From positions 1,888,001-1,952,000 of the forward strand of contig CAXXLQ010000004.1 of NCBI GenBank assembly GCA_963668695.2: DNA of 64,000 nucleotides, given 5' to 3'. Below, one piece after another: positions 1 through 60,597 of the stretch. The stretch is from Vicinamibacteria bacterium (GTDB lineage: Bacteria; Acidobacteriota; Vicinamibacteria; Marinacidobacterales; Marinacidobacteraceae). The position numbers and the translations under genes are program-made. Within the stretch, counting starts at the first letter, position 1. Each line of letters opens with the position of its first letter. The notes beneath the pieces are model-generated. The model did no database searches, was not told where the DNA came from, and saw nothing but the letters and a program-made list of their open reading frames with translations.

Positions 1-37
1 CGGGAGAACTGGGCCGCGAGACTTTGTCCACAGGCTG
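1..37 (-). mobile_element. Family A MITE-like repeat, one end (cut by window edge)
   Basis: Ends GACTTTGTCCACAGGCTG followed by CTAG (38-41); nearly identical to the end at 46251-46272; carries the 18-nt unit at 1-12. Confidence 0.85.
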
Positions 38-271
38 CTAGCAGTCTGCGCCGCAGGAAGTTCTTGCGACTGAGTGGGTTGAGGGATTGTCAAGTTGTGG
101 GAAGTGTGTTCTGGTACGGGTAGGAGGTTGAGGATGCCGACGAGATTTCGTGCGTATCAGCCGGGACAGATTCTGTTGAGGCCCCCCAATCTGAACGACT
201 GGGTTGCAGAAATCCTCACTAACCCCACTGTCCAGGAATCGGGGTCCACCTCACTGGATCGCTTCTCATGA
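38..271 (+). pseudogene. IS1182-like left end plus truncated transposase N-terminus (ORF 134-271)
   Basis: CTAGCAGTCTGCGCCGCAG end, GGAGG RBS, then MPTRFRAYQPGQILLRPPNLNDWVAE, resembling the FRxYxxxQxxLxPPxLxDW start of IS1182/DUF772 transposases; similarity ends after about 26 codons. Confidence 0.65.
219..253 (-). mobile_element. Isolated IS3-family-like terminal inverted repeat
   Basis: Reverse complement reads TGAGGTGGACCCCGATTCCTGGACAGTGGGGTTAG, a TG-starting end of IS3-type appearance, located where the IS1182-like ORF loses similarity. Confidence 0.5.
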
Positions 272-672
272 GATTGCGCGGAAACAACCTCTTTCGCCTG
301 ACGCTATTCGGGCACAAGGCAGTGGAAGCTGGCGGCGTCTGCCTGCTGCTGATGGTGCAGGGCAACCTGACCGGGCTCACCCTGGGGCATGTCGGAATCG
401 CCAGCCAGACGGGCTTGCTCGCAGTCATCCCCCTGGTTGGGGTGACCCTCACCAGATACGCCCGGCATTTGGCCAACCGGTGGACCTCGTCAGGACTGAT
501 CGCGGTCTGCACGTTCGTCGCGGACGCAGCGATTCACGGATCGCACTATCCGGGCGCCTATACCGAAGCAGCGTTGACCGCCGCCGGCGCGTTCGTCTTT
601 TCGGTCGTCGTCTCCTTCACACCGATTGGCAGGCGTATCGAAAGACTCGCCGAGACCCATCTGCGCCGGTAA
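268..672 (+). CDS. Hypothetical membrane protein
   Basis: 134-aa ORF with about four hydrophobic segments. Confidence 0.7.
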   Translation: MRLRGNNLFRLTLFGHKAVEAGGVCLLLMVQGNLTGLTLGHVGIASQTGLLAVIPLVGVTLTRYARHLANRWTSSGLIAVCTFVADAAIHGSHYPGAYTEAALTAAGAFVFSVVVSFTPIGRRIERLAETHLRR

Positions 673-779
673 CGGACTGGTAGCCCTGGACTCGTCGGCG
701 CCAGGTTTCGTCCGCCGTCAGGGTCGAGGACGACAGTGGCCGCGAGAGTCGGCTCCCTGCCGGGTGTGACTTGACGTGG

Positions 780-1634
780 TCATCCCCGACCGACGATGAG
801 CGTGACCGCGAGGGCCGCGCACGCCACCCCGGTGACCTGCCAGCCATTGAGGCGCTCGCCGAGCACGACCCGCGCGAGGATCACGGTGCTCGCGGGGTAC
901 AGCGACAAGAGGGTGACGACGACGCTGAGCGGCCCGTAACGGGAGGCCAACAGGTACAGGGCGGTGGCGCCCACATCCACGGCGCCGCCGACGAGAGCGA
1001 TCCTGGCGACGGGCGCCGCCAGGCGCAACGGCCGCCCGCTGACCAGTGCGATGACGGTGAACAGCGTCACCGAGGCGGCGCGCGCCGCCACCAGAGGCCA
1101 CATACCTGCCCCGGCGTCCGTTTCGGCCAGGGCAAGAAAGAACAGGCCGATCGCCACGCCCGACACCAGCGCGAGGCCGACACCGGGCGGCAGCGCCCCG
1201 GCGCGGACCGAGACGGCCCCCGCCGCCGCCCGCTGCTGACTGACCAGCACGATGGCCACGATCGCCAGCGCGACCCCGAGCATGGTCAGCGATCCAAGCC
1301 GTTCCCCGCGCAAGACGCCGGTGGCGACCGCAATCAGCACGGCGCACACGGCCGTCGTCGGAGCCACGACCGCCATCCTCCCCACCGCAAGCGCCCGATA
1401 CAGCAGCGCCAACCCGACGCCGCCGATGAGTCCGGCCGCGCCGCCCCAGACCAGATCGCGCGCCGCCGGTGTGGCCTCGGGCAACAGCGGCAGACTAAGG
1501 AGCAGCAGCGTCAGGCCGCAGCCCTGCGACGTCACGACGACGGCGAGGGTGTTCGCTCGACGCGCGGCGAGGCCGCCAAGGAAATCGGCGGTGCCGTACA
1601 GCGCCGCCGCACTGAGAGCGAGTAGATAGGCCAT
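780..1634 (-). CDS. DMT/EamA family transporter
   Basis: 284 aa, about 10 TM segments, two EamA-like halves (YGTADFLGG; LYPASTVILARVVLGERL). Confidence 0.9.
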   Translation of the reverse strand: MAYLLALSAAALYGTADFLGGLAARRANTLAVVVTSQGCGLTLLLLSLPLLPEATPAARDLVWGGAAGLIGGVGLALLYRALAVGRMAVVAPTTAVCAVLIAVATGVLRGERLGSLTMLGVALAIVAIVLVSQQRAAAGAVSVRAGALPPGVGLALVSGVAIGLFFLALAETDAGAGMWPLVAARAASVTLFTVIALVSGRPLRLAAPVARIALVGGAVDVGATALYLLASRYGPLSVVVTLLSLYPASTVILARVVLGERLNGWQVTGVACAALAVTLIVGRG

Positions 1635-1885
1635 GGAGACTCTGTGGCGGATCCCGCGCGTAGCAGGCGAGTGCCGTTCGAGGGCGAGAGCACCGACGGG
1701 AACGCACCCCGCCGCGTGCCGGCGGCTCGTCCGTGCTCATCGAAGCCCCACCCACGCCGGCACGCGAGGGCCGGGAAGATACACCCACGACGACCTTGGA
1801 TCGAGATGGAGGCAGCGCGGAATCGGCGACATTGGAGGGCGGGGCGAGCGCTTCTCGAGTATCAGCCGGCGCCCGAGGCCTCGAA

Positions 1886-1956
1886 ATGACCGTGAGCGCA
1901 CAACCTCCGATCGACTACAGCAGGTTTCGGCTCTCGCTAAAGCGCCTCCGGGAGCA
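1886..1956 (+). pseudogene. N-terminal remnant of HI0074-type nucleotidyltransferase substrate-binding (HEPN) protein
   Basis: MTVSAQPPIDYSRFRLSLKRLRE resembles the IDYxKFxxSLKRLEE start of that family; it breaks off at a family C repeat. Confidence 0.4.
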
Positions 1957-1965
1957 TGGCGGCTG

Positions 1966-2042
1966 CCCGCGGTTTCGCCGCGCTCTGCGCGGCGGTGCCG
2001 GTGTGAAGCCCCCACCGGGAGAACTGGCCGGCGGTCCCGGGG
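1966..2042 (-). repeat. Family C REP-like repeat with 18-nt insertion (2010-2027)
   Basis: Reverse complement GGGACCGCCGG[CCAGTTCTCCCGGTGGGG]GCTTCACACCGGCACCGCCGCGCAGAGCGCGGCGAAACCGCG; compare the empty form at 24802. Confidence 0.8.
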
Positions 2043-2057
2043 ACGCCCCGTTCCTCC

Positions 2058-4256
2058 CTATGGCACTTCCTCATCCCCGTAGCTCATGCCGAGCTGCATC
2101 ATCAGGAAGGCCGTCTCCATGGCCCGGTCGGGTACCCGGCTGCGGCCCCCGGCGTGGCCCGCGCGGGGCGCGTAGCGAAGGATCACCGGTAGCCCGGAGG
2201 AGGACGCGGCCTGGACCCGCGCCGCCATTCTACGGGCCTGGAGCGGCGGCACCCGGGTGTCGAGATCGCCCTGGGTGAACATCACCGCCGGGTAGTCGGT
2301 CCCGTCGCGCACCGCCTGGTAAGGCGAGTACTGGCGGAGGAACTCGAACTGCTCCGGGATCCCGGCGTTCCCGTACTCGAGCAGCGCCGGCATGTTGTTC
2401 GCGTGGGTGAACGTGTAGAACCGGACCATGTCGAGGTCGGGGAACCCGCAGAACACCGCGCGGTAGAGATCGGGCCGCTGGGTGAAGGAACTCGCCACCA
2501 GCAGGCCGCCGTTGCTCGTCCCCGTGATCGCGAGGCGATCCGGGTTCGTGTAGCCGTTTTCGATGAGCCATTCGGCGGCGGAGATGAAGTCGTCGAAAAC
2601 GTTTTGCTTGTTCTCCAGCATTCCGCCGCGGTGCCAGTCCTCCCCGAACTCGCCGCCGCCCCGGAGGGTCGCCACCGCGAAGACGCCCCCCGCTTCCACC
2701 CAGACCGCCGCCTGCGCGCGGAAGGACGGCGCGAGGCTCGAGTTGAAGCCGCCGTAGCCGTGGAGCAGGGTGGGCAGGTTGCCGTCCGGTTCCACCCCGC
2801 GCTGCCGCATGAGGTACATCGGCGCCTCGGTGCCGTCCTTCGAGGTGTACCAGACCTGCTCGACGACGATGTCGCTGCCGTCGTATTCCGGCCGGGACGG
2901 CGCGATCTGCTCCCGTTCGAACGTCTCGAGGTCCAGCCGGTAGCGGGTCTGCGGCACCGCGAAGGAGGACAGGGTGAGCATCGCGCCGTCCTCGCCCAGC
3001 TTGCTCAGGGAGGCGGTGTGATGGGGGGGCAGGGGGACCTCGTCCACCGCCTGGAGCGGCGCGCCCGCCTCTCCGACTTCGAACACCAGGACACGGGAGG
3101 CGACGTCCGCGAGCAGATTCACGTAGGTCCGCTCGCCGATGGTGGTGTAGCCCTGGAGCAGGTGCTCCTGCTCGGGAATCCAATCCCTCCAGCGCGAGCG
3201 GTCCGACCAGCGCGACGGGTCCACGCCCTCGGTGGGGATCGCGACCACCCGGTAAAGCGGGGCGTCAAGGTTGGTCGTGAGGAGCAGCCGGTCCTCCTCG
3301 TAGCGGGCGGTGGCGTGGGCGCGTCCGCCTTCGAGCACGGGATGGACCTCCCCGCTCCGCTGGTCCATGACGAAGATCTCGTTCCGCATCCAGCCGTGCT
3401 GGACGCCGAGCAGCAGTAGGCGTCCGTCCTCGATTTCCTCCAACCGGAGGAAGGTCTCCGGTCCGTATCCTTCCCCGAAAATCTCTTGGTCTTCGCTCAT
3501 CTCCGTCCCGAGGCGGTGGTAGCGCGCCCGCGGGCCGTCCTCCCGCGAGCGGTGGACGTAGAAGAAGCCCTCGCCCTTCCCGTCGAACGCGATGGTCCCG
3601 TAGAGCGCCTCCGGCAGCCGGTCGGGCCGCTCTTCGAGGGTTTCGAGATCGAGGAGGCGCACGCTGATCTCGTCGAGCCCCCCGTCCCGGATGCGGTAGA
3701 GCAGGAGCGATCCGTCGGGAGCGATGTCCACGATGTCGAGGCTCGCGAACTCGTCGAACCCGAGCTCCATGGCATCGAGGAGCAGTTCGTACTCGCCGCC
3801 GGGGTCCGGCCGCTCTCCGGTGTCTCCGTCCTCGCTCTTTTGCCGACGGTAGATGCGCGCCTGCGACTCCCCGGCGCGGCGTAGGGTGAAGATCTCGTGG
3901 TCGCCGGCTTCCCGCGGAGCCGAAACCGCCGGGACTTCCATGAGCTCCGCGAGGCGGGCCGCGATCCGGGCTTCGAGTCCGGTGTCGGACACGATCCGGC
4001 GCGCGTATTCGTTCTGGGCGTCGATCCACGCCCGCGTCTCCGGACTCTCCTGATCCTCGAGCCAGCGGTAGGGGTCAAGGATCTCGACGCCGTGGATCGT
4101 GTCGGTGACCACCTCCACCCGGGTTTCGGGCGGGGGCGGCCAGAGCCCCGAGCATCCGGAGGCCAGCAGGACCGCGGCCGATGCGGCCAACAGCCGCCAT
4201 GGACGCAGGGAAAAAGGAATGGATGAACGCACGGCGATCCCCCCTCGGCGGTTCAC
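2058..4256 (-). CDS. Prolyl oligopeptidase (S9A), probable lipoprotein
   Basis: DPYRWLED, YGGF, RGGGEFG, GTSNGG nucleophile, DTRV, AGH; lipobox LASGC. Confidence 0.95.
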   Translation of the reverse strand: MNRRGGIAVRSSIPFSLRPWRLLAASAAVLLASGCSGLWPPPPETRVEVVTDTIHGVEILDPYRWLEDQESPETRAWIDAQNEYARRIVSDTGLEARIAARLAELMEVPAVSAPREAGDHEIFTLRRAGESQARIYRRQKSEDGDTGERPDPGGEYELLLDAMELGFDEFASLDIVDIAPDGSLLLYRIRDGGLDEISVRLLDLETLEERPDRLPEALYGTIAFDGKGEGFFYVHRSREDGPRARYHRLGTEMSEDQEIFGEGYGPETFLRLEEIEDGRLLLLGVQHGWMRNEIFVMDQRSGEVHPVLEGGRAHATARYEEDRLLLTTNLDAPLYRVVAIPTEGVDPSRWSDRSRWRDWIPEQEHLLQGYTTIGERTYVNLLADVASRVLVFEVGEAGAPLQAVDEVPLPPHHTASLSKLGEDGAMLTLSSFAVPQTRYRLDLETFEREQIAPSRPEYDGSDIVVEQVWYTSKDGTEAPMYLMRQRGVEPDGNLPTLLHGYGGFNSSLAPSFRAQAAVWVEAGGVFAVATLRGGGEFGEDWHRGGMLENKQNVFDDFISAAEWLIENGYTNPDRLAITGTSNGGLLVASSFTQRPDLYRAVFCGFPDLDMVRFYTFTHANNMPALLEYGNAGIPEQFEFLRQYSPYQAVRDGTDYPAVMFTQGDLDTRVPPLQARRMAARVQAASSSGLPVILRYAPRAGHAGGRSRVPDRAMETAFLMMQLGMSYGDEEVP

Positions 4257-4335
4257 CCTAACCGATCAATCCCGAGTCCCGGTGCCCTCCGCCGGAACCC
4301 GGCACCACGTTCACGTAATCTACCGGGTCACCGTC

Positions 4336-4899
4336 ATGCCGTTCCGCCTGCCTTCCGATCTGGTTCTCGATCCCGAGCGGGGATTTCGCATCTACGAGGG
4401 CGTCGTCGTCCCCGACTGGACCGACCGGAACGGGCACATGAATGTCGTGTACTATCGGAGGGCTTTCGATCAGGCTACGCAACACATGCTGAGTCGTATT
4501 GGACTCTGGGATAACGACAACGATTACGGGTCCACTTTTGCACTTGAAGACCATGTGACTTACCAGCGCGAGTTACATCCGGGCCGCCCGTTTTTCGTCA
4601 CCTACCAGCTTCTCGACTTCAGCGACAAACTGATCCACGCCTTTCTCCGTCTCTTCGGCGAGCCGGAGGGCGAGGGTGACGAACCGGTGCTGGCCGCCAC
4701 CTGCGAGCACATCGGCGTCTATGTGGACATGCGAACCCGGCGGTCCGCCTCCATGCCGGCCGAGTACTACGAACTCCTTCAGGAGATCTCACGCCGCCTC
4801 GAGGGAACGCCGCAGCCCCCCGAGAAAGGCCGCGTCATCGGCATTCGCCACCGCGCTCCCGCGAAACCCATTCCCAGGCGCATCCCGGTGAGCGTCTGA
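4336..4899 (+). CDS. Thioesterase family protein (hotdog fold)
   Basis: DWTDRNGHMNVVYY motif; start set at ATG 4336. Confidence 0.88.
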   Translation: MPFRLPSDLVLDPERGFRIYEGVVVPDWTDRNGHMNVVYYRRAFDQATQHMLSRIGLWDNDNDYGSTFALEDHVTYQRELHPGRPFFVTYQLLDFSDKLIHAFLRLFGEPEGEGDEPVLAATCEHIGVYVDMRTRRSASMPAEYYELLQEISRRLEGTPQPPEKGRVIGIRHRAPAKPIPRRIPVSV

Positions 4900-5084
4900 C
4901 CGTTGCCATGCGTTCAACCATCCAACCGGGAGTTTCCATGAAAACCCGCTCTCTGCGAGACCATCCTGATGGCGATGTTCACCGCCGGATAGACGGAGGG
5001 CCGCAAAGCCCCGACACTTTTTCGTTCCGGTCCGGTCACCTGACCGGGCCTCAGTCTGTCGCTTCCACAAGGAGGAACCCAGAC

Positions 5085-8015: not shown

Positions 8016-8024
8016 CTACGCAAC

Positions 8025-8067
8025 TTCCCTTCCGGGCAGGGACTCCGGTCCCTGCCCGGTCAGGGAA
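8025..8067 (+). terminator. Strong hairpin after TonB receptor gene
   Basis: CCGGGCAGGGAC-TCCG-GTCCCTGCCCGG 12-bp stem extended by TTCCCT/AGGGAA; no clear U tract. Confidence 0.55.
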
Positions 8068-8111
8068 TACGCAATGCGCAGGACTAACCTGCGTCAAGCG
8101 CGCGCGACAGC

Positions 8112-8262
8112 GGAGCGCCGGCCAGTTCTCCCGGTGGGGGCCTCCGACCGGCATCGCGGCCCACCGGGCCGCGAAACCGCGTACTGCTGCTCAGCCAGAC
8201 GGTGTCGCCCGCAAGGGAACGCCGACCTCCGGTCGGCACAGCCCGCCGGCAGGCGGGCGGAA
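8112..8262 (+). repeat. Two family C REP-like repeats (first filled with the 18-nt unit at 8122-8139, second empty)
   Basis: GGAGCGCCGG[18]GCCTCCGACCGGCATCGCGGCCCACCGGGCCGCGAAACCGCG and GGGAACGCCGACCTCCGGTCGGCACAGCCCGCC...GGCGGGC. Confidence 0.75.
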
Positions 8263-8264
8263 CT

Positions 8265-8680
8265 GCGTACGGCCGATCCGCGTGAACCGCGCCTCCACCG
8301 GACCCATCCCCTACTCCGTCCGGAACCCCGCCGCCTTGTGACTCCCGTCGCAGAACGGCGTCGTTCTCCGAGTCGCCGCAGCGGCAAGACGCTACCCGTG
8401 TATCGCAAAGGGCGATCTCCTTTCCCTCGGCGACTTCGATCTCCCCCGCCACGTAAAGCGGCCCGTTCGCCTGGACGATCGCCGTGTTGATCGGCGGTGT
8501 CTTCTCCACCGCGCCGTCCTTTCGCTCGAAATGGAGCGACCCGGTGGGACATGCCACGACGGTCTTGGCCAGCTCGTCGACTCCTCCGGCCCGATCGGGC
8601 AGGATCCACGGCCGCCGCTCCGGGTCGCAGACCGCCGGAAGGCGCTTCACGCACTCGGCCGCGTGGATGCAGCGTGGGAT
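8265..8680 (-). pseudogene. Degraded (4Fe-4S)-binding/CDGSH iron-sulfur protein
   Basis: RCIHAAECVKRLPAV...ACPTGSLHF, NGPLYVAG, CRCGDSEN, then a frameshift to PFCDGSH near 8360; no intact start seen. Confidence 0.8.
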
Positions 8681-8734
8681 GGTTCGATCCGATGGGAGGC
8701 GAGCCCCACTGACTTCCGCCCAGTGTCTGGGACC

Positions 8735-9484: not shown

Positions 9485-9494
9485 CGGGGTCGGC

Positions 9495-10113: not shown

Positions 10114-10128
10114 TCGAAGTCGTATTCT

Positions 10129-10227: not shown

Positions 10228-10276
10228 AGCGGACGCCGGCGCCAGTTCTCCCGGTGGGGCCCCTGCCTGCGGCGCT
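10228..10276 (+). repeat. Degenerate family C repeat with 18-nt unit (10242-10259)
   Basis: GCGGACGCCGGCG[CCAGTTCTCCCGGTGGGG]CCCCTG; shares the CGCGACAGCGGA lead with the 8112 copy. Confidence 0.65.
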
Positions 10277-17000: not shown

Positions 17001-17274
17001 CGCCATCGAAGGGCGATTCTTCGACGTGGGGCTCACCGGGGCCCGCGAGGACGCCTTCCGGGCGCCGATGCGTCTCTTCGGGCGCCTCGGCGCCCTCGCG
17101 AACGACGCCGGCTGGGACGGCGCCGATTTCGCACCGACCGACCAGCAGCGGGAAGTCCACGAGATCCTCAGCGAGCGCTTCGAGACTGCCCGCGCGGAGT
17201 ACCGCCGGTTGATGGCGACGCAACTGCCACCCTTCTGGCAGGCGCTTGCCGAGGCGCGGGGAAGCAGCCCGTGA
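14053..17274 (+). CDS. VPS10/sortilin-like BNR-repeat glycosyl hydrolase-like protein
   Basis: Signal peptide, WRTIGP, repeated SxDGGxTW Asp-boxes, GDNHDVWVDP, VATYGRG; the stop codon lies inside a family A end. Confidence 0.9.
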   Translation: MPDRYPTRLALWLALGLLPLVPEAVPAQPVTPDPAHLSGLQWRTIGPDGNRLSAATGEWGNPDVIYFGAASGGIWKSSDRGINWEPVFDDQDAASISALAVSPSHSGHVWAGTGETFIIRPALAMGNGVYRSTDGGRSFHHRGLEATGRIARILVHPEDPDLVYACALGHSYAPQPERGVYRTRDGGANWELVLHVDENTGCSDLAMDLRHPERLLAGMWQLQINTGGLRSGGPGSGVYRSRDGGDTWERLSGAKSNEEGATGGGRALPGGEAHPVGKVAVGIAPSDPDRWYALIEDESPGFYRSDDGGDAWRLMITHHDLAERAPYYVRLAVDSADADRVYFASVLFSITVDGGRTLVETSYRAGGDNHDVWVDPWMPERILVGHDGGGSISENRGESWRRVVPPVAQMYHVTVDDRIPYRVYGNRQDGYSYRGPSRTSGGGIPLGLWEGVGGCESGWATPEPHDDNVVWSGCYDGGLEVYDDRTGHVRDVRVWPEAGYGWAPADLKVRWHWNFPMVLSRHEPGTTWVGSQFVHESSNRGQSWNTISPDLTTNDKARQQDSGGVTVDNLYTFDGSVLFALAESPGQAGRLWAGSVDGKVHVTTDGGETWLDRSGNVPGLDQDGWIKFIEPSHHDPEKAYVAVSWHQSGDFRPHIFRTRDLGESWERISGGIPESPFSFVHVVREDRARAGVLFAGTDNRVWASLDDGASWFSLQLDMPPAPIYGIVIQERFDDLVVATYGRGFFILDGIGPLRGLAEASGEKLRVFDSPVAWRFLPRQSIKSEPGSLVTGRNPPYGAAISWWLDEDAAAASAEVAIVDGEGEVVRTLQGPGETGLSRVTWDLRGETPERAVLRTRPPDRDWVELGEDGERRIRTWDLDIFPGYRGLLLPPGSYTARVTAGDHTAETTLQVEADPASAATPDDILAKYEFLDAIHAQLNELAEMVDELEWVRREIEGLQERHAGDERFRAVLESAGEIAGTAIAIEGRFFDVGLTGAREDAFRAPMRLFGRLGALANDAGWDGADFAPTDQQREVHEILSERFETARAEYRRLMATQLPPFWQALAEARGSSP

Positions 17275-17479
17275 ACAAAGTCACGCGGCCCAGTTCTCCC
17301 GGTGGGGGCTCGAGCGGCGATCCATCCCGGCTGAACCGCCCCGCTTCGCGGGGCTCTGCGTTGCGCTTCGGTCGAAATACGCTCGGGCCAGTTCTCCCGG
17401 TGGGGGCTCCTCCCTCGCGCGCCTTGTCAGCCCGGCGCCTCGCCACTCTCGGCGCTCACGCGACTCTATCCACAGGCTG
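17265..17479 (+). mobile_element. Family A MITE-like element with two 18-nt insertions (17290, 17388)
   Basis: Ends CAGCCCGTGAACAAAGTC / GACTCTATCCACAGGCTG; conserved core CGTTGCGCTTCGGTCGAAATAC...CCTCCCTCGCGCGCCTTG. Confidence 0.88.
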
Positions 17480-17507
17480 CAGAGGAGGCGCCTCGCGCTG
17501 AGTCCCG

Positions 17508-24092: not shown

Positions 24093-24461
24093 ATGGCCGA
24101 TTGCTGGATTGCCCTGACAACGCTCGCGACCCGCGACGAGGGCGAACGTCTCGCCGCGATCCTCGTCGAGGAGTGCCTCGCTGCCTGCGTCAACGTGATC
24201 GGTCCGATGATCTCCATCTACCAGTGGGAAGGCAAGGTCGAACGGGACACGGAGGTCCTCCTCCTCATCAAGACCACCGCGGCGGGCGTCGAGCCTCTCA
24301 AAGAGCGGGTTCTCGATCTCCATCCCTACGACACCCCCGAATTCCTCGCTTTCGAGGTGGGCGCCGGATCGTCCGGCTACCTCGACTGGGTGGTGGATTC
24401 GGTGGCGCCGGCAGGCCCCGATGGAACCCCCGATGGAACCCCCGATGGAACCCCCGTCTGA
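24093..24461 (+). CDS. cutA: Divalent-cation tolerance protein CutA
   Basis: LAACVN, SIYQWEGK, IKT, HPYDTPE. Confidence 0.93.
   Translation: MADCWIALTTLATRDEGERLAAILVEECLAACVNVIGPMISIYQWEGKVERDTEVLLLIKTTAAGVEPLKERVLDLHPYDTPEFLAFEVGAGSSGYLDWVVDSVAPAGPDGTPDGTPDGTPV
24416..24456 (+). repeat. 12-bp tandem repeat (PDGT)x3
   Basis: CCCCGATGGAAC x3 at the 3' end of cutA. Confidence 0.85.
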
Positions 24462-24555
24462 CTGCTCTCGCCGGATCTGATCGGCGAAACCCGTAGCCGG
24501 GCGGGCATCCGTCGTCGACGCCCGACAGCCGAGCCCGGTAGCGTCGGCCGGTTGC

Positions 24556-24798
24556 CGGACCACCTCAAAGGACCCTCGCCTCTCCGCGGCGCTCACCACC
24601 TTCAAGGTGGGCGACGTGCCGGTGGACAACATCGCGAAGGGCGTTATGGACCTTGAGCGCATCTTCATCCGCACGGTGGAGAAGCCCGATCTCTCCGCGG
24701 CTCGTTCTTCGGTCCACTTCTGCAACATGCCGGGCGAGGTGGACGGCCTCCTCCGGGCTATCCGCGACATCGCGGCCCACCAGTCCGACTACCTGTAG
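24556..24798 (+). pseudogene. C-terminal fragment of a class V aminotransferase-like protein
   Basis: SKDPRLSAALTTFKVG...IFIRTV...ARSSVHFCNMPGEVDGLLRAI; no N-terminal part. Confidence 0.55.
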
Positions 24799-24799
24799 C

Positions 24800-25003
24800 C
24801 TGGGACCGCCGGCCTTCAGGCCGGCATCGCTCCCCGCAGGGGAGCGAGAAGCGTGTTTTGGCTACCCGTGTGAAGCGCGCGGCGTAAAGAAGGGCGTATC
24901 GCCGGTCTGCTCGAAGAGCGCAGCGGGCAGGGAACGCCGACCTCTGGGCAGTTCTCCCGGCGGGGCCCGGCATCGCTCCCCGCAGGGGAGCGAGAAGCGT
25001 GTT
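24800..25003 (+). repeat. Two family C repeats (empty at 24802; 18-nt variant at 24948-24965)
   Basis: GGGACCGCCGGCCTTCAGGCCGGCATCGCTCCCCGCAGGGGAGCGAGAAGCGTGTT, and a second copy with the same second hairpin. Confidence 0.85.
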
Positions 25004-41069: not shown

Positions 41070-41080
41070 TCCGGAGGGGC

Positions 41081-41281
41081 AACAGCCTGTGGACAAGGTC
41101 ATGCGGCCCAGTTCTCCCGGTGGGGGCTCGAGCGGCGATCCATCCCGGCTGAAGCACTTCGCTTCGCTTCGTTCGTCGTTGCGCTTCGGTCGAAATACAC
41201 TCGGTATTCCTCCCTCGCGCGCCTTGTCACCCGGGCGCCTCGCCGCTCTCGGCGCTCACGTCACCTTGTCCACAGGCTGTT
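41081..41281 (+). mobile_element. Family A MITE-like element with perfect 19-bp terminal inverted repeats
   Basis: AACAGCCTGTGGACAAGGT (41081-41099) / ACCTTGTCCACAGGCTGTT (41263-41281); one 18-nt unit at 41108. Confidence 0.9.
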
Positions 41282-41285
41282 AACG

Positions 41286-45660: not shown

Positions 45661-45762
45661 GGGAGGAACCTCCATCCGGATCGTGATGCGAAGAGCACGT
45701 CCAGACCTGGAGTCCGGGCGTAATGCAATGTCACATCCTGCAATTTCGTTGCCAGCACCTGG

Positions 45763-46268
45763 CAGCCTGTGGATAAAGTGGTGTGAGCGCCGAGAGCGGC
45801 CAGTCCTCCCGGTGGGGGCGAGGCCCAGTTCTCCCGGTGGGGGTCCGGCTGACAAGGCGCGCGAGGGAGGAGCCCCCACCGGGAGAACTGGCCCGGGTGT
45901 ATTTCGACCGAAGCGCAACGATGAGTGACGCGAAGCGGCGCGGTGAACAGCCGGTGGTGGAACCCGGGTGAGCGCCGAGGCCGGCGAGGCCCAGTTCTCC
46001 CGGTGGGGCCAGTTCTCCCGGTGGGGGCCCGGCTGGCAAGGCGCGTGAGGGAGGAGCCCCCACCGGGAGAACTGGCCCGGGTGTATTTCGACCGAAACGC
46101 AACGATGAGCGGCGCGCAGCGACGCGGGCAGCCGGGATGGCTCGCCGGCCGAGCCCCCACCGGGAGAACTGGGCCGCGCGGGTTTCATCACAGGCTGTTT
46201 GGCCGGGATGGATCGCCGCTCGAGCCCCCACCGGGAGAACTGGGCCGCGTGACTTTGTCCACAGGCTG
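45763..46268 (-). mobile_element. Family A outer copy interrupted by a nested copy
   Basis: Ends CAGCCTGTGGATAAAGT / ACTTTGTCCACAGGCTG+CTAG; body split at about 45947/46200. Confidence 0.85.
45948..46197 (-). mobile_element. Family A inner (nested) copy with four 18-nt units
   Basis: Ends CAGCCGGTGGTGGAACCCG / CGGGTTTCATCACAGGCTG; units at 45991, 46009, 46058, 46155. Confidence 0.85.
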
Positions 46269-46374
46269 CTAGGGCGGAATTGCATGGTGCGGGTTTCCCT
46301 ACGCCGCGGTGCCGGTTCCCACCGGGATAGCCGGGCAGGTGAGAGGCGAATGGCCCAGGGAGAAGAAAACTGAC

Positions 46375-50346: not shown

Positions 50347-54820
<4,474 letters not shown>

Positions 54821-54851
54821 TCGTCGGAGCCGGGTAAACCCGTCAATTTAG

Positions 54852-54950
54852 CAGCCTGTGGGCGAAGTGACGTGAGCGCCGTGGCCGGGGCGGAGGGTGG
54901 CGGACAAAGCCGTGCGAGGGAGGACCGGCCGACGTTCTGAGTGTCCACCA
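54852..54950 (-). repeat. Partial, diverged family A-like element
   Basis: TTAG+CAGCCTGTGGGCGAAGTGACGTGAGCGCCG, as at 51815, then diverging. Confidence 0.65.
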
Positions 54951-55037
54951 ACACGTACGGTGGCTCTGTATCCCGACGAATGGTCACTGTCGCGTGTCCC
55001 ACCGGAGATGTCGACTCCCTGAACGAGCGAAAACAAC

Positions 55038-55739
55038 GGCAGCGAACTTTGTTCGCGGCCCGCGTGATCGGGGGGAAAGTGTGAAAGGGGGGCCACCGCC
55101 CCCCTTTCACAAGAAGACAACCAGGAATCGGAACTCGCCGTAGCGCGCCACAGGCGCGCGAGGGAGTTTCGATTCCCGAGCCAGGAGCGGCTGGGAGTCG
55201 GGTCCCCCGACCCCAACCCCTCCTGCTCCGGGGTCTCCGTGCGGCTCTCGCCGCACTTCGGAAGTCCGGCGCGAAGCGCCGGGCGGTTCCCGGACGGGGC
55301 CCCGACACAATCGGAACTGACGTATCAGATCGCCAGCGTTAGTGGCCCCGTGGTAGGTGCGTAGCAGCGGGGAACCTGTCCGCGAGAAAATAACTGATGG
55401 GCTCGAACCCTGTGGGTTCGAGCCCCACGCAGCGGGGGAAAGTGTGAAAGGGGTCCTCCCCTTTCACAAGACGGTAACGACGAATCGAGACTCGCCGCCG
55501 CCAAGTTTTCCCCGGCTAGGTGGCAGGTCTGGAGTCGAGTTCGCGCGGCGGGAGTTTCGATTCCCGAGCCAGGAGCGGCTGGGAGTCGGGTTCCCCGACC
55601 CCAACCCCTCCCGCTCCGGGGTCTCCGTGCGGCTCTCGCCGCACTTCGGAAGCGCGGCGCGAAGCGCCGGGCGGTTCCCGGACGGGGCCCCGACACAATC
55701 GGAACTGACGTATCAGATCGCCAGCGTTAGTGGCCCCGT
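55038..55739. repeat. Two tandem family B repeats sharing a 190-bp near-identical segment
   Basis: 55162-55351 and 55550-55739 differ at about 4 positions. Confidence 0.9.
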
Positions 55740-55789
55740 CCGGGAACCGCCCGACGGCCAGCGGCTCGCGGACAGAGTGGCGCGAGCGC

Positions 55790-55951
55790 AGAGAGCGGCG
55801 AGGCGCCCGGCTGACAAGGCGCGCGAGGGAGGAATACCGAGTGTATTTCGACCGAAGCGCAACGATGAGCGCCGCGAAGCGCCAGTTCTCCCGGTGGGGG
55901 GGCGGTTCAGCCGGGATGGATCGCTGGTTGAACGCCGCGCGACTCTGTCTG
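55790..55951 (-). repeat. Family A body without intact ends; 18-nt unit at a unique site (55882-55899)
   Basis: GAGAGCGGCGAGGCGCCCGGCTGACAAGG...GAAGCG[18]GGGCGGTTCAGCCGGG. Confidence 0.82.
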
Positions 55952-55959
55952 GGGGCCGC

Positions 55960-56898
55960 TCAGGGCGTGTAGTCCACGATGTAATTCAGCGGGTTCTGGG
56001 CTCGCTCGTTGATCCACACTTCATAGTGGAGGTGGGGAGCGCGGCTGCGCCCGGTGTTCCCCACGAGTCCCAGTACCTGGCCGCGGCGGAGCCGCTGGCT
56101 GCGTCGAACGTCAATCCGGGAAAGGTGCGCGTAACGGGTCACCGCGCCGAAACCATGGGAAACCACGACGTTCTTCCCGTAGGTTGGCGAGGTCGATGTC
56201 TCGATGACGAGACCATCCGCGGTGACGCGTATCGGGGTTCCCGTGCCCGCATTGAGATCCAGCCCGTAGTGCCTTTCGATTTCTCCGGTAAACGGATCGT
56301 TGCGCTGCCCGAATCCGGATGACATGTATCCGCGGATCGGCCAGATGGACGGGGTTGACGCGAGCAGCCTGCTCTTCTCCCGCATGGTCCGTTCGAGCGC
56401 AACGCCTTGCTGATCGAGGGAGGCGATTCTGCCGGACAGATCCTCAAGCCGATTGCTCACGTAGTCGTACCCCGCCGGCGTTCCCACGGCGCCGCCGATG
56501 CCACCGATCGGAATGGGGACCGGTTCGGCGCCGGCGATTACCGCCAGCTTGCGCATCCGCATTTCGAGGGACTCGATCCGGCTGGCCATCCGCTCCGTAT
56601 CCTCGGCGTAGTCGCGATTCAACTGACGAAGAGCGTCGCGCTCTTCCTCCAGGGTCGCCGAACCAGGCCCGGGACTGACGAGCAGCCAACCGTAGTGCCC
56701 GACAATGCCAAGGGAAAGGAGCGCGGCGCAGGCAGCCGCCCGTCGGGTTCGGGAACTGATCCGAACCTCGCGCGGCGTGTGGTTCCGCGCACCGAAGACA
56801 ATGATTCTGGTGGGAATCCTGACCGAATCTACTGAGTTTCCCCGGGAAGGGGCGCGTCCGAAGAGCCGCCGACGCAAGGGTATGTTCCGCCCAAACAT
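55960..56898 (-). CDS. M23 family metallopeptidase
   Basis: TPSIWP, HYGLD, TRYAHL, PHLHYEV; TM segment plus coiled coil; start uncertain. Confidence 0.92.
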   Translation of the reverse strand: MFGRNIPLRRRLFGRAPSRGNSVDSVRIPTRIIVFGARNHTPREVRISSRTRRAAACAALLSLGIVGHYGWLLVSPGPGSATLEEERDALRQLNRDYAEDTERMASRIESLEMRMRKLAVIAGAEPVPIPIGGIGGAVGTPAGYDYVSNRLEDLSGRIASLDQQGVALERTMREKSRLLASTPSIWPIRGYMSSGFGQRNDPFTGEIERHYGLDLNAGTGTPIRVTADGLVIETSTSPTYGKNVVVSHGFGAVTRYAHLSRIDVRRSQRLRRGQVLGLVGNTGRSRAPHLHYEVWINERAQNPLNYIVDYTP

Positions 56899-56954
56899 AG
56901 AGTTACGACCAGATTGTGACCGCTGCCGCTCGGGAATTCAACTCCTTGGGCGGA

Positions 56955-57383
56955 TCAGCGTTCCGACACCGAAGGGCGGTGCGCCGATTTGTGAGACAGC
57001 ACGATGAACCGGGGGAGATCGTTTTCCTGCCACGTGACGGTTCCGCCGGATTTCAGAGTGCGGATCTTCTGAAGACAGCGCCGGATCGGATCCTGAAGGG
57101 GGTCGATCTCAACGAGAATCGCCTCCGGCGGCAAGGCATCCAGCGCCGCCAGACCGTCCGAGAGCAGGCTCTCGGCGCCCTGGAATCCGGAAGTCTGCAA
57201 GTGGTACATCCCGGCGGCAAGCTTCACCAGAGCCTTCAGGGACTCGCGCCGCACTCCCCGGGTCGCGGCCCACTCCTCTTCGAGAACATCGTGGCTTTCG
57301 TAGTATGCCCGCTCGTTGAAGAGCCCGGCGGCCTCTGCCAGTGCGGAGGAATGCCCTTCGGCGGGTCCGGTGATTCCGGTCAC
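56955..57383 (-). CDS. DUF309 domain protein
   Basis: LFNERAYYESHDVLEEEW...LVKLAAGMYH. Confidence 0.88.
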   Translation of the reverse strand: MTGITGPAEGHSSALAEAAGLFNERAYYESHDVLEEEWAATRGVRRESLKALVKLAAGMYHLQTSGFQGAESLLSDGLAALDALPPEAILVEIDPLQDPIRRCLQKIRTLKSGGTVTWQENDLPRFIVLSHKSAHRPSVSER

Positions 57384-59029
57384 GCGTTCCCCCTGAGCGC
57401 CTTGGCGTCGGGGTTCGCGCCGGTCGGTGTGATCCCGGCGGAACCCGGTTCGCTCAGTTCGGCGGCCGCCCGGAACTGAATCGCTTCCTCAAAGTGCAAC
57501 GGCTCAATGTTGTCGCTCCCCGCGAGGTCGGCGATGGTCCGGGCCACCCGGAAGGCGCGGGTGATGCCGCGCGTGGACATACCGAGGCCATCCATCGCCC
57601 AGGAAACCAGCGATCGAAACGGGCCGGAGAGCGATGCCTGTTTCACTTCGGCGATCGACGTGCGAGCTGGCGTCGTTGCTGTCCGGAACCTCTCGTCCCG
57701 TCGGCGACGGGCCAGGTGCACCCGCTCCCGCACGGGGGCAGTGGACTCGCCGGAGGCCGGGCCCAATACATCTCCGGAGGTTACCGGGCGGACTGTCAGG
57801 TGGATGTCCATACGGTCGAGTAGCGGGCCGGAAATGCGTGAGCGGTAGCGCGCGACGGAGGCGGGAGGACAGCGGCAGGGTCGCCCTCCCTCGCCGTGGA
57901 AGCCGCAGGGACACGGATTCATGGCTGCCACCAGTTGGAACTGCGCCGGGAAGCGGACGGAGTGGCGGACGCGCCCGATGTGAATGTCCCCGCTCTCGAG
58001 CGGCTGGCGCAAGCACTCCAGAACCGGGCGCTGGAATTCGGAAAGTTCGTCCAGGAACAGCACCCCGTGATGCGCGAGGGTCATTTCCCCCGGCCGGGGT
58101 CCCGATCCTCCGCCGGCCATGCCGGCATAGGAGATCGTGTGGTGCGGCGCCCGGAACGGAGGCCGCTGCGGCGGGCCGGAGAGCGGCTGGCCGATGGCCG
58201 AACGGATGCGAGCCACCTCCATGGCCTGTTCCGGGGAGAGTTGGGGAAGCAGATCCGGAAGGATGCCGACGAGCAGGGTCTTCCCGCTTCCGGGCGGACC
58301 GACAAAGAGGAGGTTGTGGGAACCGGCCGCGGCGATCTCGAGGGCCCGCCGCGCGCGTGGCTGTCCGCATACTTGAGCGAGGTCTACTCCGGAGCGGGAT
58401 GCCACGGGCGGCCGGGGGGAGGGCTGATGGGGCGGGGGAAGCGACGGAGCGGTCAGCAGATCGGCGGCGGCGCGGAGACTGGAAGCGGGATACACCCGAA
58501 CCCCGGCGGCCATGGCGGTCTCGTCCGCGTTTTCGGGGGGCACGATGGCTGTTTGCATACCGGCGGCTGCTGCTTCCCAGGCGATCGGCAGCCCGCCGGG
58601 TGCCGGCCGTATCGAGCCGTCGAGGGCCAGCTCACCGAGCAGCAGGGTGTCCGCCAACCGGTGGCGAGGCACCACCCCGGTAGCGGCGAGCACACCGAGC
58701 GCAACCGCCAGATCAAAGCCCGCTCCTTCCTTGCGAACCCCGGCCGGAGCCAGATTGACCACGACGTGTCCGTTCGGGACGTGGAATCCGCTGTTGCGCA
58801 GCGCCGCCTTGACCCGGAGTTGTGCTTCGCGGACTACGGCGTCCGGGAGACCCACGGTGCGAAACGAGGATTGGTCCGCGCGCTGCAGGTCTACTTCGAC
58901 ACGAATCAACAGCCCCTCGACTCCCCGGACGGTCCCGGTCCGGGTGACTGCAAGCAGCCGTCCCGTGCCGGTGCCCCGGCCGGCGGTGGGATCGGTATCG
59001 GAAGCTGGAGCCGGTCGCACAAAAAGCAC
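57380..59029 (-). CDS. comM: YifB/ComM Mg-chelatase-like AAA+ ATPase
   Basis: VGLPD, NLAPA, GELALDG, GPPGSGKT, PFRAPHHT, LFLDEL, MNPCPCG, SGPLLDR; true start may be about 75 nt further in. Confidence 0.92.
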   Translation of the reverse strand: MLFVRPAPASDTDPTAGRGTGTGRLLAVTRTGTVRGVEGLLIRVEVDLQRADQSSFRTVGLPDAVVREAQLRVKAALRNSGFHVPNGHVVVNLAPAGVRKEGAGFDLAVALGVLAATGVVPRHRLADTLLLGELALDGSIRPAPGGLPIAWEAAAAGMQTAIVPPENADETAMAAGVRVYPASSLRAAADLLTAPSLPPPHQPSPRPPVASRSGVDLAQVCGQPRARRALEIAAAGSHNLLFVGPPGSGKTLLVGILPDLLPQLSPEQAMEVARIRSAIGQPLSGPPQRPPFRAPHHTISYAGMAGGGSGPRPGEMTLAHHGVLFLDELSEFQRPVLECLRQPLESGDIHIGRVRHSVRFPAQFQLVAAMNPCPCGFHGEGGRPCRCPPASVARYRSRISGPLLDRMDIHLTVRPVTSGDVLGPASGESTAPVRERVHLARRRRDERFRTATTPARTSIAEVKQASLSGPFRSLVSWAMDGLGMSTRGITRAFRVARTIADLAGSDNIEPLHFEEAIQFRAAAELSEPGSAGITPTGANPDAKALRGNA

Positions 59030-59070
59030 AGACGGAATTCCCGGCGTTTTCTTCCCGCTTCGGCATCGAT

Positions 59071-59079
59071 TGTGGATAA
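59071..59079 (-). promoter_or_regulatory. Single consensus DnaA box
   Basis: TGTGGATAA (TTATCCACA) between the divergent comM and ccdA genes. Confidence 0.35.
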
Positions 59080-59164
59080 GTCATCGTGGAGGCGCCGTTT
59101 TGCGGGGTATCGCCGCCTCAGCGATCCGCACGGGATACGATTCGGGCTCGGCGGGGCTTCGCCG

Positions 59165-59236
59165 GGCCGTCTCGGGTACAAGTCACCCGATCCGGGGCCC
59201 CTCCGGGAGAACTGGCAGAGGCCGGTTCTCCGGCCG
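59165..59236 (-). repeat. Degenerate family C repeat with 18-nt variant (59198-59215)
   Basis: Reverse complement GGAGAACCGGCCTCTG[CCAGTTCTCCCGGAGGGG]CCCCGGATC. Confidence 0.6.
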
Positions 59237-59259
59237 CTTCCCGCCTTCTCCTTCGCTTC

Positions 59260-59991
59260 ATGGATTTCTTCACGCTGCTCACCGCCTTCGGGGCCGGAGT
59301 GCTGTCGTTCCTGTCGCCCTGCGTGTTGCCCCTCGTGCCGGGATATATCTCCTTCGTCTCGGGGGCCTCGTTGAGCGAACTGGCGGACGGGGCGCTCACC
59401 GGGGATGCGGTAGCCCGCCGGCGCCGGGTCATCGTGAACACCGTCGCCTTCGTGCTGGGCTTTTCGATCGTGTTCGTGGCGATGGGCGCCTCGGCAACCT
59501 ATGCCGGGCAGTGGCTCGCCGGAAACCGGATCATGCTCGGCCGGATCGCGGGGACGGTCATCGTGGTGTTCGGCCTGCACGTGATGGGGGTTCTGAAGAT
59601 CCCCTTCCTGAACGTGGAAAAACGCTTCCATTCGAGCCGCGAGCCCGTCAGCCTGCTCGGCTCGTTCGGGATCGGTCTCGCGTTCGCGTTTGGGTGGTCG
59701 CCCTGTATCGGACCGATCCTCGCCGGCGTTCTGGTTCTGGCCGCGAACTATGAGACGGTGACCCAGGGCATCATCCTGCTGAGCGCGTACTCGCTTGGAC
59801 TCGGGGTCCCCTTCCTGCTTACCGGGATCGCGGTGGATCGCTTCTTCGCGCTCTCCAAGAAAGTAAAGCGGCACATGCGGGTGGTGGAAATCGTCGCGGG
59901 CGTGCTTCTCGTAGTCATCGGAGTGCTGGTGTTCACCGACAGCCTCCAGGCGCTCTCGCAGTACCTCACTTTCCTTCCGGTGCTTGGCTGA
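59260..59991 (+). CDS. ccdA: Cytochrome c biogenesis protein CcdA
   Basis: AGVLSFLSPCVLPLVPGY, FAFGWSPCIGPIL, YSLGLGVPF. Confidence 0.93.
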   Translation: MDFFTLLTAFGAGVLSFLSPCVLPLVPGYISFVSGASLSELADGALTGDAVARRRRVIVNTVAFVLGFSIVFVAMGASATYAGQWLAGNRIMLGRIAGTVIVVFGLHVMGVLKIPFLNVEKRFHSSREPVSLLGSFGIGLAFAFGWSPCIGPILAGVLVLAANYETVTQGIILLSAYSLGLGVPFLLTGIAVDRFFALSKKVKRHMRVVEIVAGVLLVVIGVLVFTDSLQALSQYLTFLPVLG

Positions 59992-60013
59992 CCTTTCCTT
60001 AGCGGGGTACCCC

Positions 60014-60400
60014 ATGCCGACGTGGCTCTTGTTTTCGATGTTGCTGGCTATCAGTTCTGGCGGCCAAGAGGTTTGGGTCGTTCCGGACGAGGCCCGGAAC
60101 CTGGAGAGCCCGGTTCCCCTCACCGATGCTGCGCTGACGGCCGGCGAGAAGGCCTACGGTGCGCGGTGCGCCTCCTGCCACGGCGACTCGGGCAAGGGCG
60201 ACGGCAAGGCCACCCGGTTTATCCGCCCGGCGCCCGCCGACATCTCGACTGCGGAAGCGCGGGATCGGATGACGGACGGCGAGATGTTCTACAAGATCAC
60301 CGAGGGGAAGAAGCCGATGCCGGGTATGGCCCGGACGCTCAGCGACGAGGAACGCTGGCAGGTGGTGCACTACGTGAGGACGCTCCAGCCGGCGCGCTAG
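60014..60400 (+). CDS. Monoheme c-type cytochrome
   Basis: CASCHG, GKGDG, TDGEMFYKITEG, PMP. Confidence 0.92.
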   Translation: MPTWLLFSMLLAISSGGQEVWVVPDEARNLESPVPLTDAALTAGEKAYGARCASCHGDSGKGDGKATRFIRPAPADISTAEARDRMTDGEMFYKITEGKKPMPGMARTLSDEERWQVVHYVRTLQPAR

Positions 60401-60597
60401 CAGCCTGTGGTGAAACCCAAGCGGCGTTCGACCGGCGATGCATCCCGGCTGAACCACTCCGCTGCGCTCCGTTCTGCGTTGCGTTTCGGTCGAAATACAC
60501 GCGGTATTCCTCCCTCACGCGCCTTGTCAGCCGGACCCCCACCGGGAGAACTGGGCCTCGCCGCTCTCGGCGCTCACCCGGGTTCCACCACCGGCTG
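60401..60597 (+). mobile_element. Family A element, site 1 empty, reversed 18-nt unit at 60537-60554
   Basis: CTAG (gene stop)+CAGCCTGTGGTGAAACCC ... GGGTTCCACCACCGGCTG. Confidence 0.88.

Follow-up and report, generated by a model that had tools for sequence, protein, structure and literature searches.

An 18-nt unit gained and lost as a block within the mosaic intergenic repeats of a sponge-associated acidobacterium

How can a sequence of 18 nt, with neither a palindrome nor inverted ends, come and go as a single block at fixed positions of unrelated repeats? The question is raised by a 64,000-nt stretch of the genome of a sponge-associated acidobacterium (the window, C4:1888001-1952000), whose assembly of 4.10 Mb and four contigs we refer to as G000. 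A sequence-only reading of the window had described the unit, here called U (CCAGTTCTCCCGGTGGGG), as a discrete micro-insertion that enters hairpin repeats in either orientation and without target duplication. Comparison with related genomes upholds that description, as none of 41 orthologous pairs of a filled and an empty site contains a target duplication. We find that U is best explained as the smallest module of a family-wide mosaic system of intergenic repeats, and that the way in which it is gained and lost as a block fits no known class of mobile element.

A short unit with fixed boundaries in several carriers

Copies of U were counted at up to two mismatches unless stated otherwise. 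The window, with a G+C content of 64–71%, holds 20 full copies (12 on the forward and eight on the reverse strand), 16 of them exact, three with one mismatch (45800, 51852 and 59198) and one with two (24948). Their starts agree exactly with 20 that had been listed by eye, and the partial copy listed with them is the first 12 bases of the window; five pairs of empty and filled sites quoted from the main carrier are likewise all present in the sequence as given. No match was found in 100 dinucleotide-preserving shuffles of the window. Counted genome-wide, as the sequence-only reading had advised, U has 1,631 copies (1,288 exact, 278 with one mismatch and 65 with two) at 601 loci, of which 259 are lone copies and the rest are clusters holding up to 15. 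The reversed word, used as a control, has zero matches in the genome at the same tolerance. U is non-palindromic, occurs on both strands alike (791 forward, 775 reverse), reaches about 0.4 copies per kb on every larger contig and shows no replichore strand bias (422/372 for the forward and 428/343 for the reverse orientation, with replichores taken from GC skew).

In an alignment of 1,565 copies, conservation is 98% or higher throughout U but for position 6, where T makes up 90% and C 10% (the T6C variant). Conservation covers G at −2 (92%), G at +1 (87%) and C at +2 (88%) and gives way to mixtures farther out, so the real unit spans about 20–22 nt. The length of 18 nt first proposed is therefore too short, whereas the gains of 18 and 19 nt reported with it stand; the former usually goes with GC in place of the two bases behind U, and the latter is U plus G. 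U alone is not prone to fold (DNA fold of −1.9 kcal/mol, with 150 of 200 shuffles folding equally well or better; z = +0.6) and has no inverted ends or self-complementarity. Inverted pairs of U form stems of 19–20 bp (z about −6.5). Among neighbours within 400 nt, 302 pairs lie on opposite strands, with 148 at a spacing of 49 nt, 63 at 56 nt and 28 at 52 nt, and 620 lie on the same strand; these spacings are stereotyped across the genome. The 1,480 runs of U comprise 1,336 single units, 140 doublets and four longer ones. Change in head-to-tail copy number, the trait of a simple tandem repeat, is thus seen only in part, and slippage is insufficient because it cannot place the first unit. The reverse complement contains GGGAG and might serve as a Shine–Dalgarno sequence, but the two window copies inspected sit far from start codons.

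To group the surroundings of U, we deleted it from the genome in silico and clustered the flanks of the 1,480 runs. This gave 97 context clusters, of which seven hold 1,336 runs and 70 are singletons. The main carrier, carrier A, is an element of about 180–260 nt with inverted ends (CAGCCTGTGG...CCACAGGCTG) and a long hairpin fold; its 748 copies or pieces, found with a U-less reference from window 60400-60600, contain 1,106 of the 1,480 runs. U occupies five sites in carrier A: site 26 (forward; filled in 236 of 537 covering copies), site 60 (reverse; 63 of 636), site 106 (forward; 316 of 653), site 137 (reverse; 233 of 660, with 93 single and 140 double) and site 144 (reverse; 211 of 665), with rare extra sites at 42, 54, 70 and 146. 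When the carrier folds, the units at sites 26 and 144 are paired with each other, as are those at 106 and 137. The five sites show 40 occupancy patterns among 440 full-length carriers, 109 of which are wholly empty, with odds ratios of 0.9 to 5.5 for pairs of sites. Whether a site is filled is linked to backbone polymorphism only within 3 nt of the junction (Cramér's V ≤0.2 for columns 4–7 nt away). The carriers themselves are mobile, with whole copies of carrier A present or absent at orthologous places (41077-41281, 51807-52034, 60398-60601 and 17262-17503). No clear target duplication was seen at these places, where the junctions resemble the element ends (TTAAC / CTG). No autonomous parent of carrier A was found: five places with carrier ends 450–6,000 nt apart hold ordinary-looking genes and no transposase-like open reading frame (ORF), as judged from ORF translations.

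A second carrier, family C, had been described as unrelated to carrier A. U is indeed found there, and the identity of the family can be refined to a repetitive extragenic palindrome (REP) type of hairpin (GCCGGTCTTCAGACCGGC, then a second hairpin), with window copies at about 8100-8170, 24790-24850 and 24930-25000. Two loci inspected in the relatives G013 and G014 encode a transposase of the Y1 type that resembles REP-associated tyrosine transposases (RAYTs; motifs HVHVL ... YVRNNP), and family C double hairpins lie on their flanks, one of them with U. Because these hairpins flank RAYT in relatives and no RAYT is found in G000, family C appears to be a REP family that lost its transposase here. 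Family D, a repeat of about 140 nt with about 29 copies in G000, starts with a REP, continues with a hairpin (TCATGACGGG...CCCGATCATGA) and ends in GGGTTTCTCCCGGTGGGG, a U-like 18-mer whose last 14 nt are those of U and whose right flanks are of the same kinds.

Junctions and turnover at orthologous sites

Synteny with the window was found in three relatives, with identities of about 95% (G1), about 92% (G4) and about 87% (G8). We compared 472 kb per relative with the corresponding stretch of G000 (W), with orthology judged in BLAST blocks 700 nt or longer and in local windows of 25 nt, and with genes called from ORFs; only 41 kb of the extra 400 kb of G1 is syntenic. The 41 filled/empty pairs are distinct, some recording one event twice, in two comparisons. 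U takes the place of one or two target bases. The dinucleotide after it is GC in 32 pairs, GT in three (all single units at site 137), GG in four (site 60 and one alike) and CC or CG in two. The empty allele differs at the GC positions in 26 of the 32, reading AT (13), GT (9), TT (1), AC (1) or T- (2), and at site 106 the base preceding U is also altered, from T to G. The event is best written as U+GC in place of two bases, a net gain of 18 nt; family C and site 144 differ, with U+G or U+GC in place of one base or none and a net gain of 19 nt. CC follows the replaced pair in about half of the 97 contexts, and CCGG(C) follows the replaced bases at site 137, at site 42 and at two sites in unique DNA. 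The earlier proposal that U recurs at defined sites of unrelated hairpin repeats, with neighbouring bases altered, is borne out.

In the W stretch, 165 of 192 U sites fell beyond comparison, either because the carrier is missing in the other genome or because the region is non-syntenic; the counts that follow come from one region of 0.5 Mb, and the genome pairs are not independent. W and G4 share 13 of 26 evaluable sites, with seven filled only in W and six only in G4. W and G8 share four of 18 (seven only in W, six only in G8, one unaligned), G4 and G8 share six of 20 (nine only in G4, five only in G8), and W and G1 share one of four (one only in W, two only in G1). One carrier shows both kinds of change in W: the site-144 unit found in G4 and G8 is missing, and a T6C unit stands at site 106, where G4 and G8 are empty. 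Occupancy therefore changes fast, by both gains and losses, which refutes the notion that filled sites are ancestral everywhere as well as that of insertion only.

Turnover extends to differences within G000. Contig C1 is a second version of C4:304-421 kb (99.3–99.9% identity), C3 is a second version of C4:3505-3538 kb (97.6–99.7%) and C2 matches C4:3408-3412 kb at 91.6%; none of them is a plasmid. They are probably co-assembled strain haplotypes, which would account for the 9% 'contamination' figure of the assembly. C1 and C4, about 99.5% identical, agree at 41 of 42 evaluable sites, the sole difference being a single U followed by GT as opposed to a doublet followed by GC. C3 and C4 agree in 12 of 16 evaluable rows; the four differing rows amount to two or three real differences, as one lies in a badly aligned stretch, two read alike and there is one more. 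A site is therefore about 2% likely to differ at a divergence of 0.5% and about 50% likely at one of 8%, and sites change state at several times the rate at which single bases are substituted.

U is also gained de novo in unique coding DNA, as had been suspected. The statement that all copies are intergenic holds in the window, where every U lies outside long ORFs and outside blocks that align as coding with relatives, but not genome-wide, given one in-frame insertion in a gene of the AcrB/AcrD/AcrF family (Pfam E = 7e-241). This is the only gene of G000 with U in verified coding DNA, and it is present twice, on C4 and C1. The protein reads HGGEP-GPHRENW-RDAA in G000 and G001 and HGGEP-V-RDAA in G004, and the segment is also missing in G018; the region match is 900 nt in G000 and 882 nt in G008 and G014, as in G004, with only lengths compared for G008 and G014. 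U was gained here by the ancestor shared by G000 and G001, in frame and adding six residues. Being 18 nt long, U is always in frame. The second insertion into unique DNA is found in G8, which reads ...CGG[U]GC CCGGCGC where W and G4 read ...CGG AT CCGGCGC; it falls in the first codons of what we take, from its translation alone, to be a GxGxxG oxidoreductase gene.

An adapter or assembly artefact, which had been named as a possible pitfall, is excluded. U is present in all 15 other genomes of the genus that were searched, and it decays by point mutation at an orthologous locus. It also lies within short-read contigs of other studies, one of which (4.5 kb) spans 55896-60000 with one letter differing. 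Contigs from 20 runs in seven studies cover the stretch, all of them short-read contigs that break at repeats, with ends inside U at about 41127, 51878 and 55896. One joint, from 45989 to 46027, skips a tandem doublet; its sides are shorter than 30 nt and may stem from paralogous carriers.

How the unit may spread

We tentatively favour, at somewhat under an even chance, a reading in which U is a non-autonomous cassette of about 20 nt (CCAGTTCTCCCGGTGGGG + GC) that spreads by short-patch copying from existing copies, guided by homology or microhomology, and by hitch-hiking on its carriers. Besides the boundaries, contexts, occupancy, junctions, turnover and mobile carriers given above, the evidence includes the descent of the copies. 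The T6C variant occurs in at most 1 of 353 units at site 26 (outside the six commonest variants), 2 of 321 at site 106, 1 of 69 at site 60 and at most 1 of 81 single units at site 137. It is carried by at most 1 of 136 first units and by 82 of 136 second units of the doublets at site 137, by 41 of 198 units at site 144 and by 15 of 85 in one family C context. The following bases are also specific to the site, being GT after single units at site 137, GC after doublets and GG at site 60. Together, the skew and the site-specific GT and GG indicate that units mostly descend from same-site units of other carriers; the skew contradicts one common pool or template. Site 42, in the left arm, is paralogous to site 137, in the right arm, and its filled form carries the GC of site 137.

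In such short-patch copying, the template would be an existing U, usually at the same site of another carrier, and the route may be ectopic gene conversion, single-strand annealing or template switching where repeats tend to form hairpins. The transfer would include the 18-nt heterology with its immediate neighbour bases and leave flanking mismatches behind, as might be expected if mismatch repair fixes flanking single mismatches but not a large loop. MutS-type repair corrects single mismatches, but not large loops. New sites would be founded rarely, where the only likeness to the usual flanks is GG..CC(GG), and copy number would then grow mainly through insertion and loss of the carriers themselves. 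The constancy of the word across genera would mean that it is re-copied, read by some host factor, or both.

Several observations weigh against copying of this kind. An ordinary conversion tract should often drag flanking differences along; none beyond about 3 nt was seen, and even a private variant 2 nt from U was not carried along with it. The two insertions into unique DNA had no homologous donor and only 3–6 nt of microhomology, and the flanks of the 97 context clusters show no general likeness to U, save CC after GC. U starts invariantly at CC in all contexts, which also fits an enzyme-defined end. In other genera, U is identical at 18 of 18 positions and framed by GG and GC in carriers that are different or strongly diverged, and orthologous U shared between genomes differ at 9 of 396 nt, as opposed to 68 of 1,100 nt in their 25-nt flanks (a small sample of overlapping pairs). 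This constancy is not predicted by passive copying alone and suggests a sequence-specific reader. Polarity, too, comes from small samples: with G8 as outgroup, a choice based on identity levels alone, three sites were found, filled in W only, empty in W only and filled in G8 only, which make one gain, one loss and one ambiguous case. Tight transfer limits, insertions into unique DNA and cross-genus constancy are thus poorly explained by copying and leave room for two other readings, of an enzyme and of a word read by a protein, which are compatible with copying rather than exclusive.

A putative sequence-specific DNA enzyme, either a recombinase or a nuclease with a ligase, might recognise U and move or copy the 20-nt unit into targets of the GG/NN/CC type. 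We regard this as possible, with perhaps one chance in four; on the same doubtful footing, U would be a 'nano-transposon', little more than a recognition site. The invariant ends and sharp drop in conservation suit such an enzyme, as does the single rule (U+GC for two bases, net +18) followed in unrelated carriers and at two unique coding sites. Loss at site 144 and gain at site 106 in one carrier of the same lineage, identity of the 18-mer in at least five genera in different carriers, and evolution slower than that of its flanks point the same way. A precedent is given by the small Ssn nucleases, cognate to the short genomic repeats termed NTS in the part of PMC11893778 drawn on here. Against an enzyme, the site-specific variants and following bases (GT, GG) are unexpected from one enzyme acting on one pool of units, and no candidate emerged from our searches, which cover a handful of Pfam families.

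The sequence-only reading had offered insertion mediated by HUH proteins or a reverse transcriptase (RT), and had advised a look for genes of an RT, HUH/RAYT, Cas1-like protein or primase–polymerase (Prim-Pol) beside a source copy. None of these is supported. Y1/RAYT proteins are encoded in 13 of 15 genomes of the genus but are absent from U-rich G000 (no match to PF01797; best tblastn E = 0.16) and G004, and also from G018 and G019, and U still differs between the haplotype contigs of G000. RVT_1 (PF00078) has no match and no first-look candidate in G000, and has matches in four of 28 genomes of the family; none of these is among the U-bearing genomes G004, G008, G018 and G019. No Prim-Pol was found in G000, and no small GIY-YIG nuclease either, the sole PF01541 match lying in a 664-aa ORF whose size suggests UvrC; a search for the TnpB zinc ribbon gave only a sub-threshold match. 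Elements of the IS110/IS1111 group typically target REPs, and the single IS110-family element of G000 (C4:~482,100-483,900) does lie inside a family C hairpin; it targets the REP hairpin rather than U. Integration by the CRISPR system was rejected as well: the Cas1 of G000 is canonical and adjoins a type I-E-like array (C4:~3,280,900-3,284,700; period 61, about 40 units) whose repeat, GGTCCATCCCCGCGCGTGCGGGGGAAGC, is unrelated to U.

U might instead be a functional word read by a host protein, such as an uptake signal like the DNA uptake sequence (DUS) or uptake signal sequence (USS), or the site of a nucleoid or repair protein, and have spread by selection or uptake-biased recombination, its mode of insertion being incidental. 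We consider this unlikely. It would agree with a non-palindromic word used equally on both strands, at about 0.4 per kb on larger contigs, that is restricted to the family (0 of 16 genomes in sister families), that often stands in inverted pairs (148 of them at 49 nt) and that evolves more slowly than its flanks. ComEC is present in G000, which is only permissive for uptake, as the protein is widespread. Known uptake words are 9–12 nt long, arise by substitution and are common inside genes. U shares with DUS and USS its family specificity, lack of a palindrome, use of both strands, frequent inverted pairing and density (about 0.4–1 per kb), but at 18–20 nt it is longer than their cores, enters as a block, is gathered at 601 loci and lies for the most part in carriers, with three quarters of its runs in one of them; in coding DNA it was verified at one gene only, present twice. 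An old orthologous copy decays freely, and the rule of block insertion would be left unexplained.

That nothing was inserted at all, with filled carriers ancestral and empties being deletions, or with subfamilies amplified from a few masters, is very improbable and is already refuted as the sole explanation. Losses are real (W lost the site-144 unit kept by G4 and G8) and contexts are stereotyped; but the AcrB-family gene shows a gain, with U present in G000 and G001 and missing from G004 and G018, W gained a unit at site 106 relative to G4 and G8, 40 patterns in 440 carriers are impossible from a few masters, and U is the only difference between orthologous carriers with private backbone variants in common. 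We give hardly any credence to the idea that an RT, a telomerase-like enzyme or retron cDNA capture copies a fixed template, of RNA or DNA, into nicked hairpins. The constant length and lack of target duplication would suit it, but RVT_1 is absent from G000, G004, G008, G018 and G019, T6C variants are site-specific, and no unique structured source copy was seen, with no Rfam match in the window (gathering score) or at four family D loci (E up to 1).

Distribution, known systems and features of the window

Copy numbers in the 15 other genomes of the genus range from 8 to 776, where short-read assemblies probably undercount. U occurs in 20 of 24 other genomes of the family (f1) and in five of 16 genera among 41 genomes, but in none of the 16 genomes of two sister families. 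Other database records with U are metagenome-assembled genomes titled Acidobacteriota, Vicinamibacteria or 'Candidatus Marinacidobacterium', and viral contigs hold no exact match to U+GC. In the papers searched, which exclude supplements and were queried for some element names, the motif occurs only in two unrelated eukaryote papers, and 'Marinacidobacterium' has no mention. Within this limited literature check, we found no prior description of a non-palindromic block of 18–20 nt gained and lost in this way. The claim that no system of this form has been described stands to that extent; the architecture, for its part, resembles known mosaic repeats.

The closest architecture, judged from parts of PMC3116915 and PMC3337134, is that of REP mosaics, or bacterial interspersed mosaic elements (BIMEs), and REPIN–RAYT systems. 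Like REPs and REPINs, U is a short, vertically persistent word with hundreds to thousands of intergenic copies, found singly, in inverted doublets and in clusters that include other short motifs, and a true REP–RAYT system, family C flanking RAYT, coexists with it in the genus. It differs in being 18–20 nt long without a palindrome, in sitting inside REP hairpins and other carriers, and in turning over in a genome without RAYT. In Neisseria, dRS3/NTS repeats separate RS modules and have a cognate single-stranded DNA nuclease, SsnA (PMC11893778, in part). A perfectly conserved repeat of about 20 nt that punctuates arrays of variable modules is seen again at window 45760-46290; dRS3/NTS, however, is a hairpin with inverted termini, which U is not, and no small GIY-YIG gene is found here. 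That part of PMC11893778 describes no gain and loss of dRS3 as a block in which two bases are replaced.

Other comparisons are more partial. Pneumococcal BOX elements have the structure boxA-boxB(n)-boxC, with a boxB of about 45 nt that varies in tandem at one place. U resembles BOX (considered here from part of the review of MITEs, or miniature inverted-repeat transposable elements, PMC10969869) as a short module of variable copy number in a constant hairpin-forming element, and in both systems elements nest; at 18 nt, U differs in using at least five sites, either orientation, other carriers and unique DNA. Rickettsia palindromic elements, given in the same part of PMC10969869 as about 150 nt, palindromic and frequently intragenic, offer a likeness in the in-frame, non-destructive insertion of U into the AcrB-family gene and the oxidoreductase N-terminus, although U is 18 nt long and almost always intergenic. 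Carrier A resembles a MITE in its length of about 180–260 nt, inverted ends, presence or absence at orthologous sites and lack of a detected autonomous parent. U itself has no inverted ends, leaves no target duplication and is several times shorter than any MITE. It thus lacks what defines MITEs, REPs and dRS3, namely palindromy, inverted ends, target duplication and a cognate gene.

The mosaic origin of short interspersed repeats such as REP, BIME, NIME (neisserial intergenic mosaic elements) and BOX, common in bacteria, is largely unexplained. U offers a clean read-out of the process, as the invariant 18-mer marks each event and the junction rule is simple; with thousands of copies, several complete relatives and haplotype contigs, events can be counted and polarised. 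If U spreads by short-patch copying, the system would measure the pace of ectopic conversion in intergenic DNA. If an enzyme is at work, it would represent a novel DNA-inserting activity with a cargo of 18–20 nt, of evident interest as a tool, in an enzyme class not yet linked to transposition; U would be the smallest discrete mobile DNA unit known, able to add six codons. In either case, the in-frame insertions indicate a route by which repeats may add peptide segments to proteins.

Table 1 Copies of U in the window, their carriers and orthologous states
Feature	Position	Strand	Units and orthologues
U truncated at the window start, the 12 final nt of the reverse-complement unit (CGGGAGAACTGG)	1..12	-	site 26, end of carrier A
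U, exact, REP-like (family C) context downstream of a gene	2010..2027	-	
U, exact, in family C hairpin, GCGCCGG[U]GCCTCCGACCGGCATCGC	8122..8139	+	
U, exact, one-off context	10242..10259	+	orthologous spacer: REP hairpin without U in G8, REP hairpin with U in G4
Carrier A (approximate ends)	17264..17480	+	U at site 26 (17290-17307) and site 106 (17388-17405); carrier missing at the orthologous place in G1, G4 and G8
U with 2 mismatches, family C context	24948..24965	+	
Carrier A (approximate ends)	41081..41282	+	U only at site 26 (41108-41125); carrier without U in G4, no carrier in G1 or G8
Array of carrier A pieces with 8 U	45760..46290	.	U at 45800(+, T6C, site 144), 45825(+), 45874(-), 46058(-), 46155(-) and 46226(-); tandem doublet 45991(+) and 46009(+) at site 137; inverted pairs 45825/45874 and 46009/46058 give stems of 19-20 bp; modules between U of 7, 31, about 80 and about 53 nt
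Carrier A (approximate ends)	51815..52032	-	T6C at site 144 (51852-51869, +), U at site 26 (51988-52005, -); no carrier in G1 and G8, two carriers of different occupancy in G4
Carrier A with diverged ends	55765..55950	-	U at site 60 (55882-55899, +); carrier shared by W and G8, site 60 empty in G8
Old U, 1 mismatch	59198..59215	-	orthologous in W, G1, G4 and G8, with a separate point mutation in each
Carrier A (reference)	60401..60598	+	one U at site 137 (60537-60554, -), GGGC>GGAC adjoining; at 60400-60600 the G4 carrier is identical but without U, G8 has no carrier, and in G1 sites 26 and 106 are filled and a second carrier is nested

Two carriers listed in Table 1 show that the backbone of carrier A is much more stable than the DNA around it. 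At 60400-60600, W and G4 have 0 differences over about 180 nt, and the flanking genes are about 8% different; at 55765-55950, W and G8 have about seven differences in 190 nt within a block of 83% identity. Other short repeats were also seen. Arrays of units containing CAGCGTGGAGTTCC, with periods of 21, 32 and 53 nt, occur at C4:~3,276,700-3,278,100 and genome-wide, and a GAACATGTCGC..TAGCGGGATC family has about 100 copies in G000. In the window, CCCCGATGGAAC is repeated three times in tandem at a gene end (24430-24470) and is missing at the orthologous place in G1, G4 and G8.

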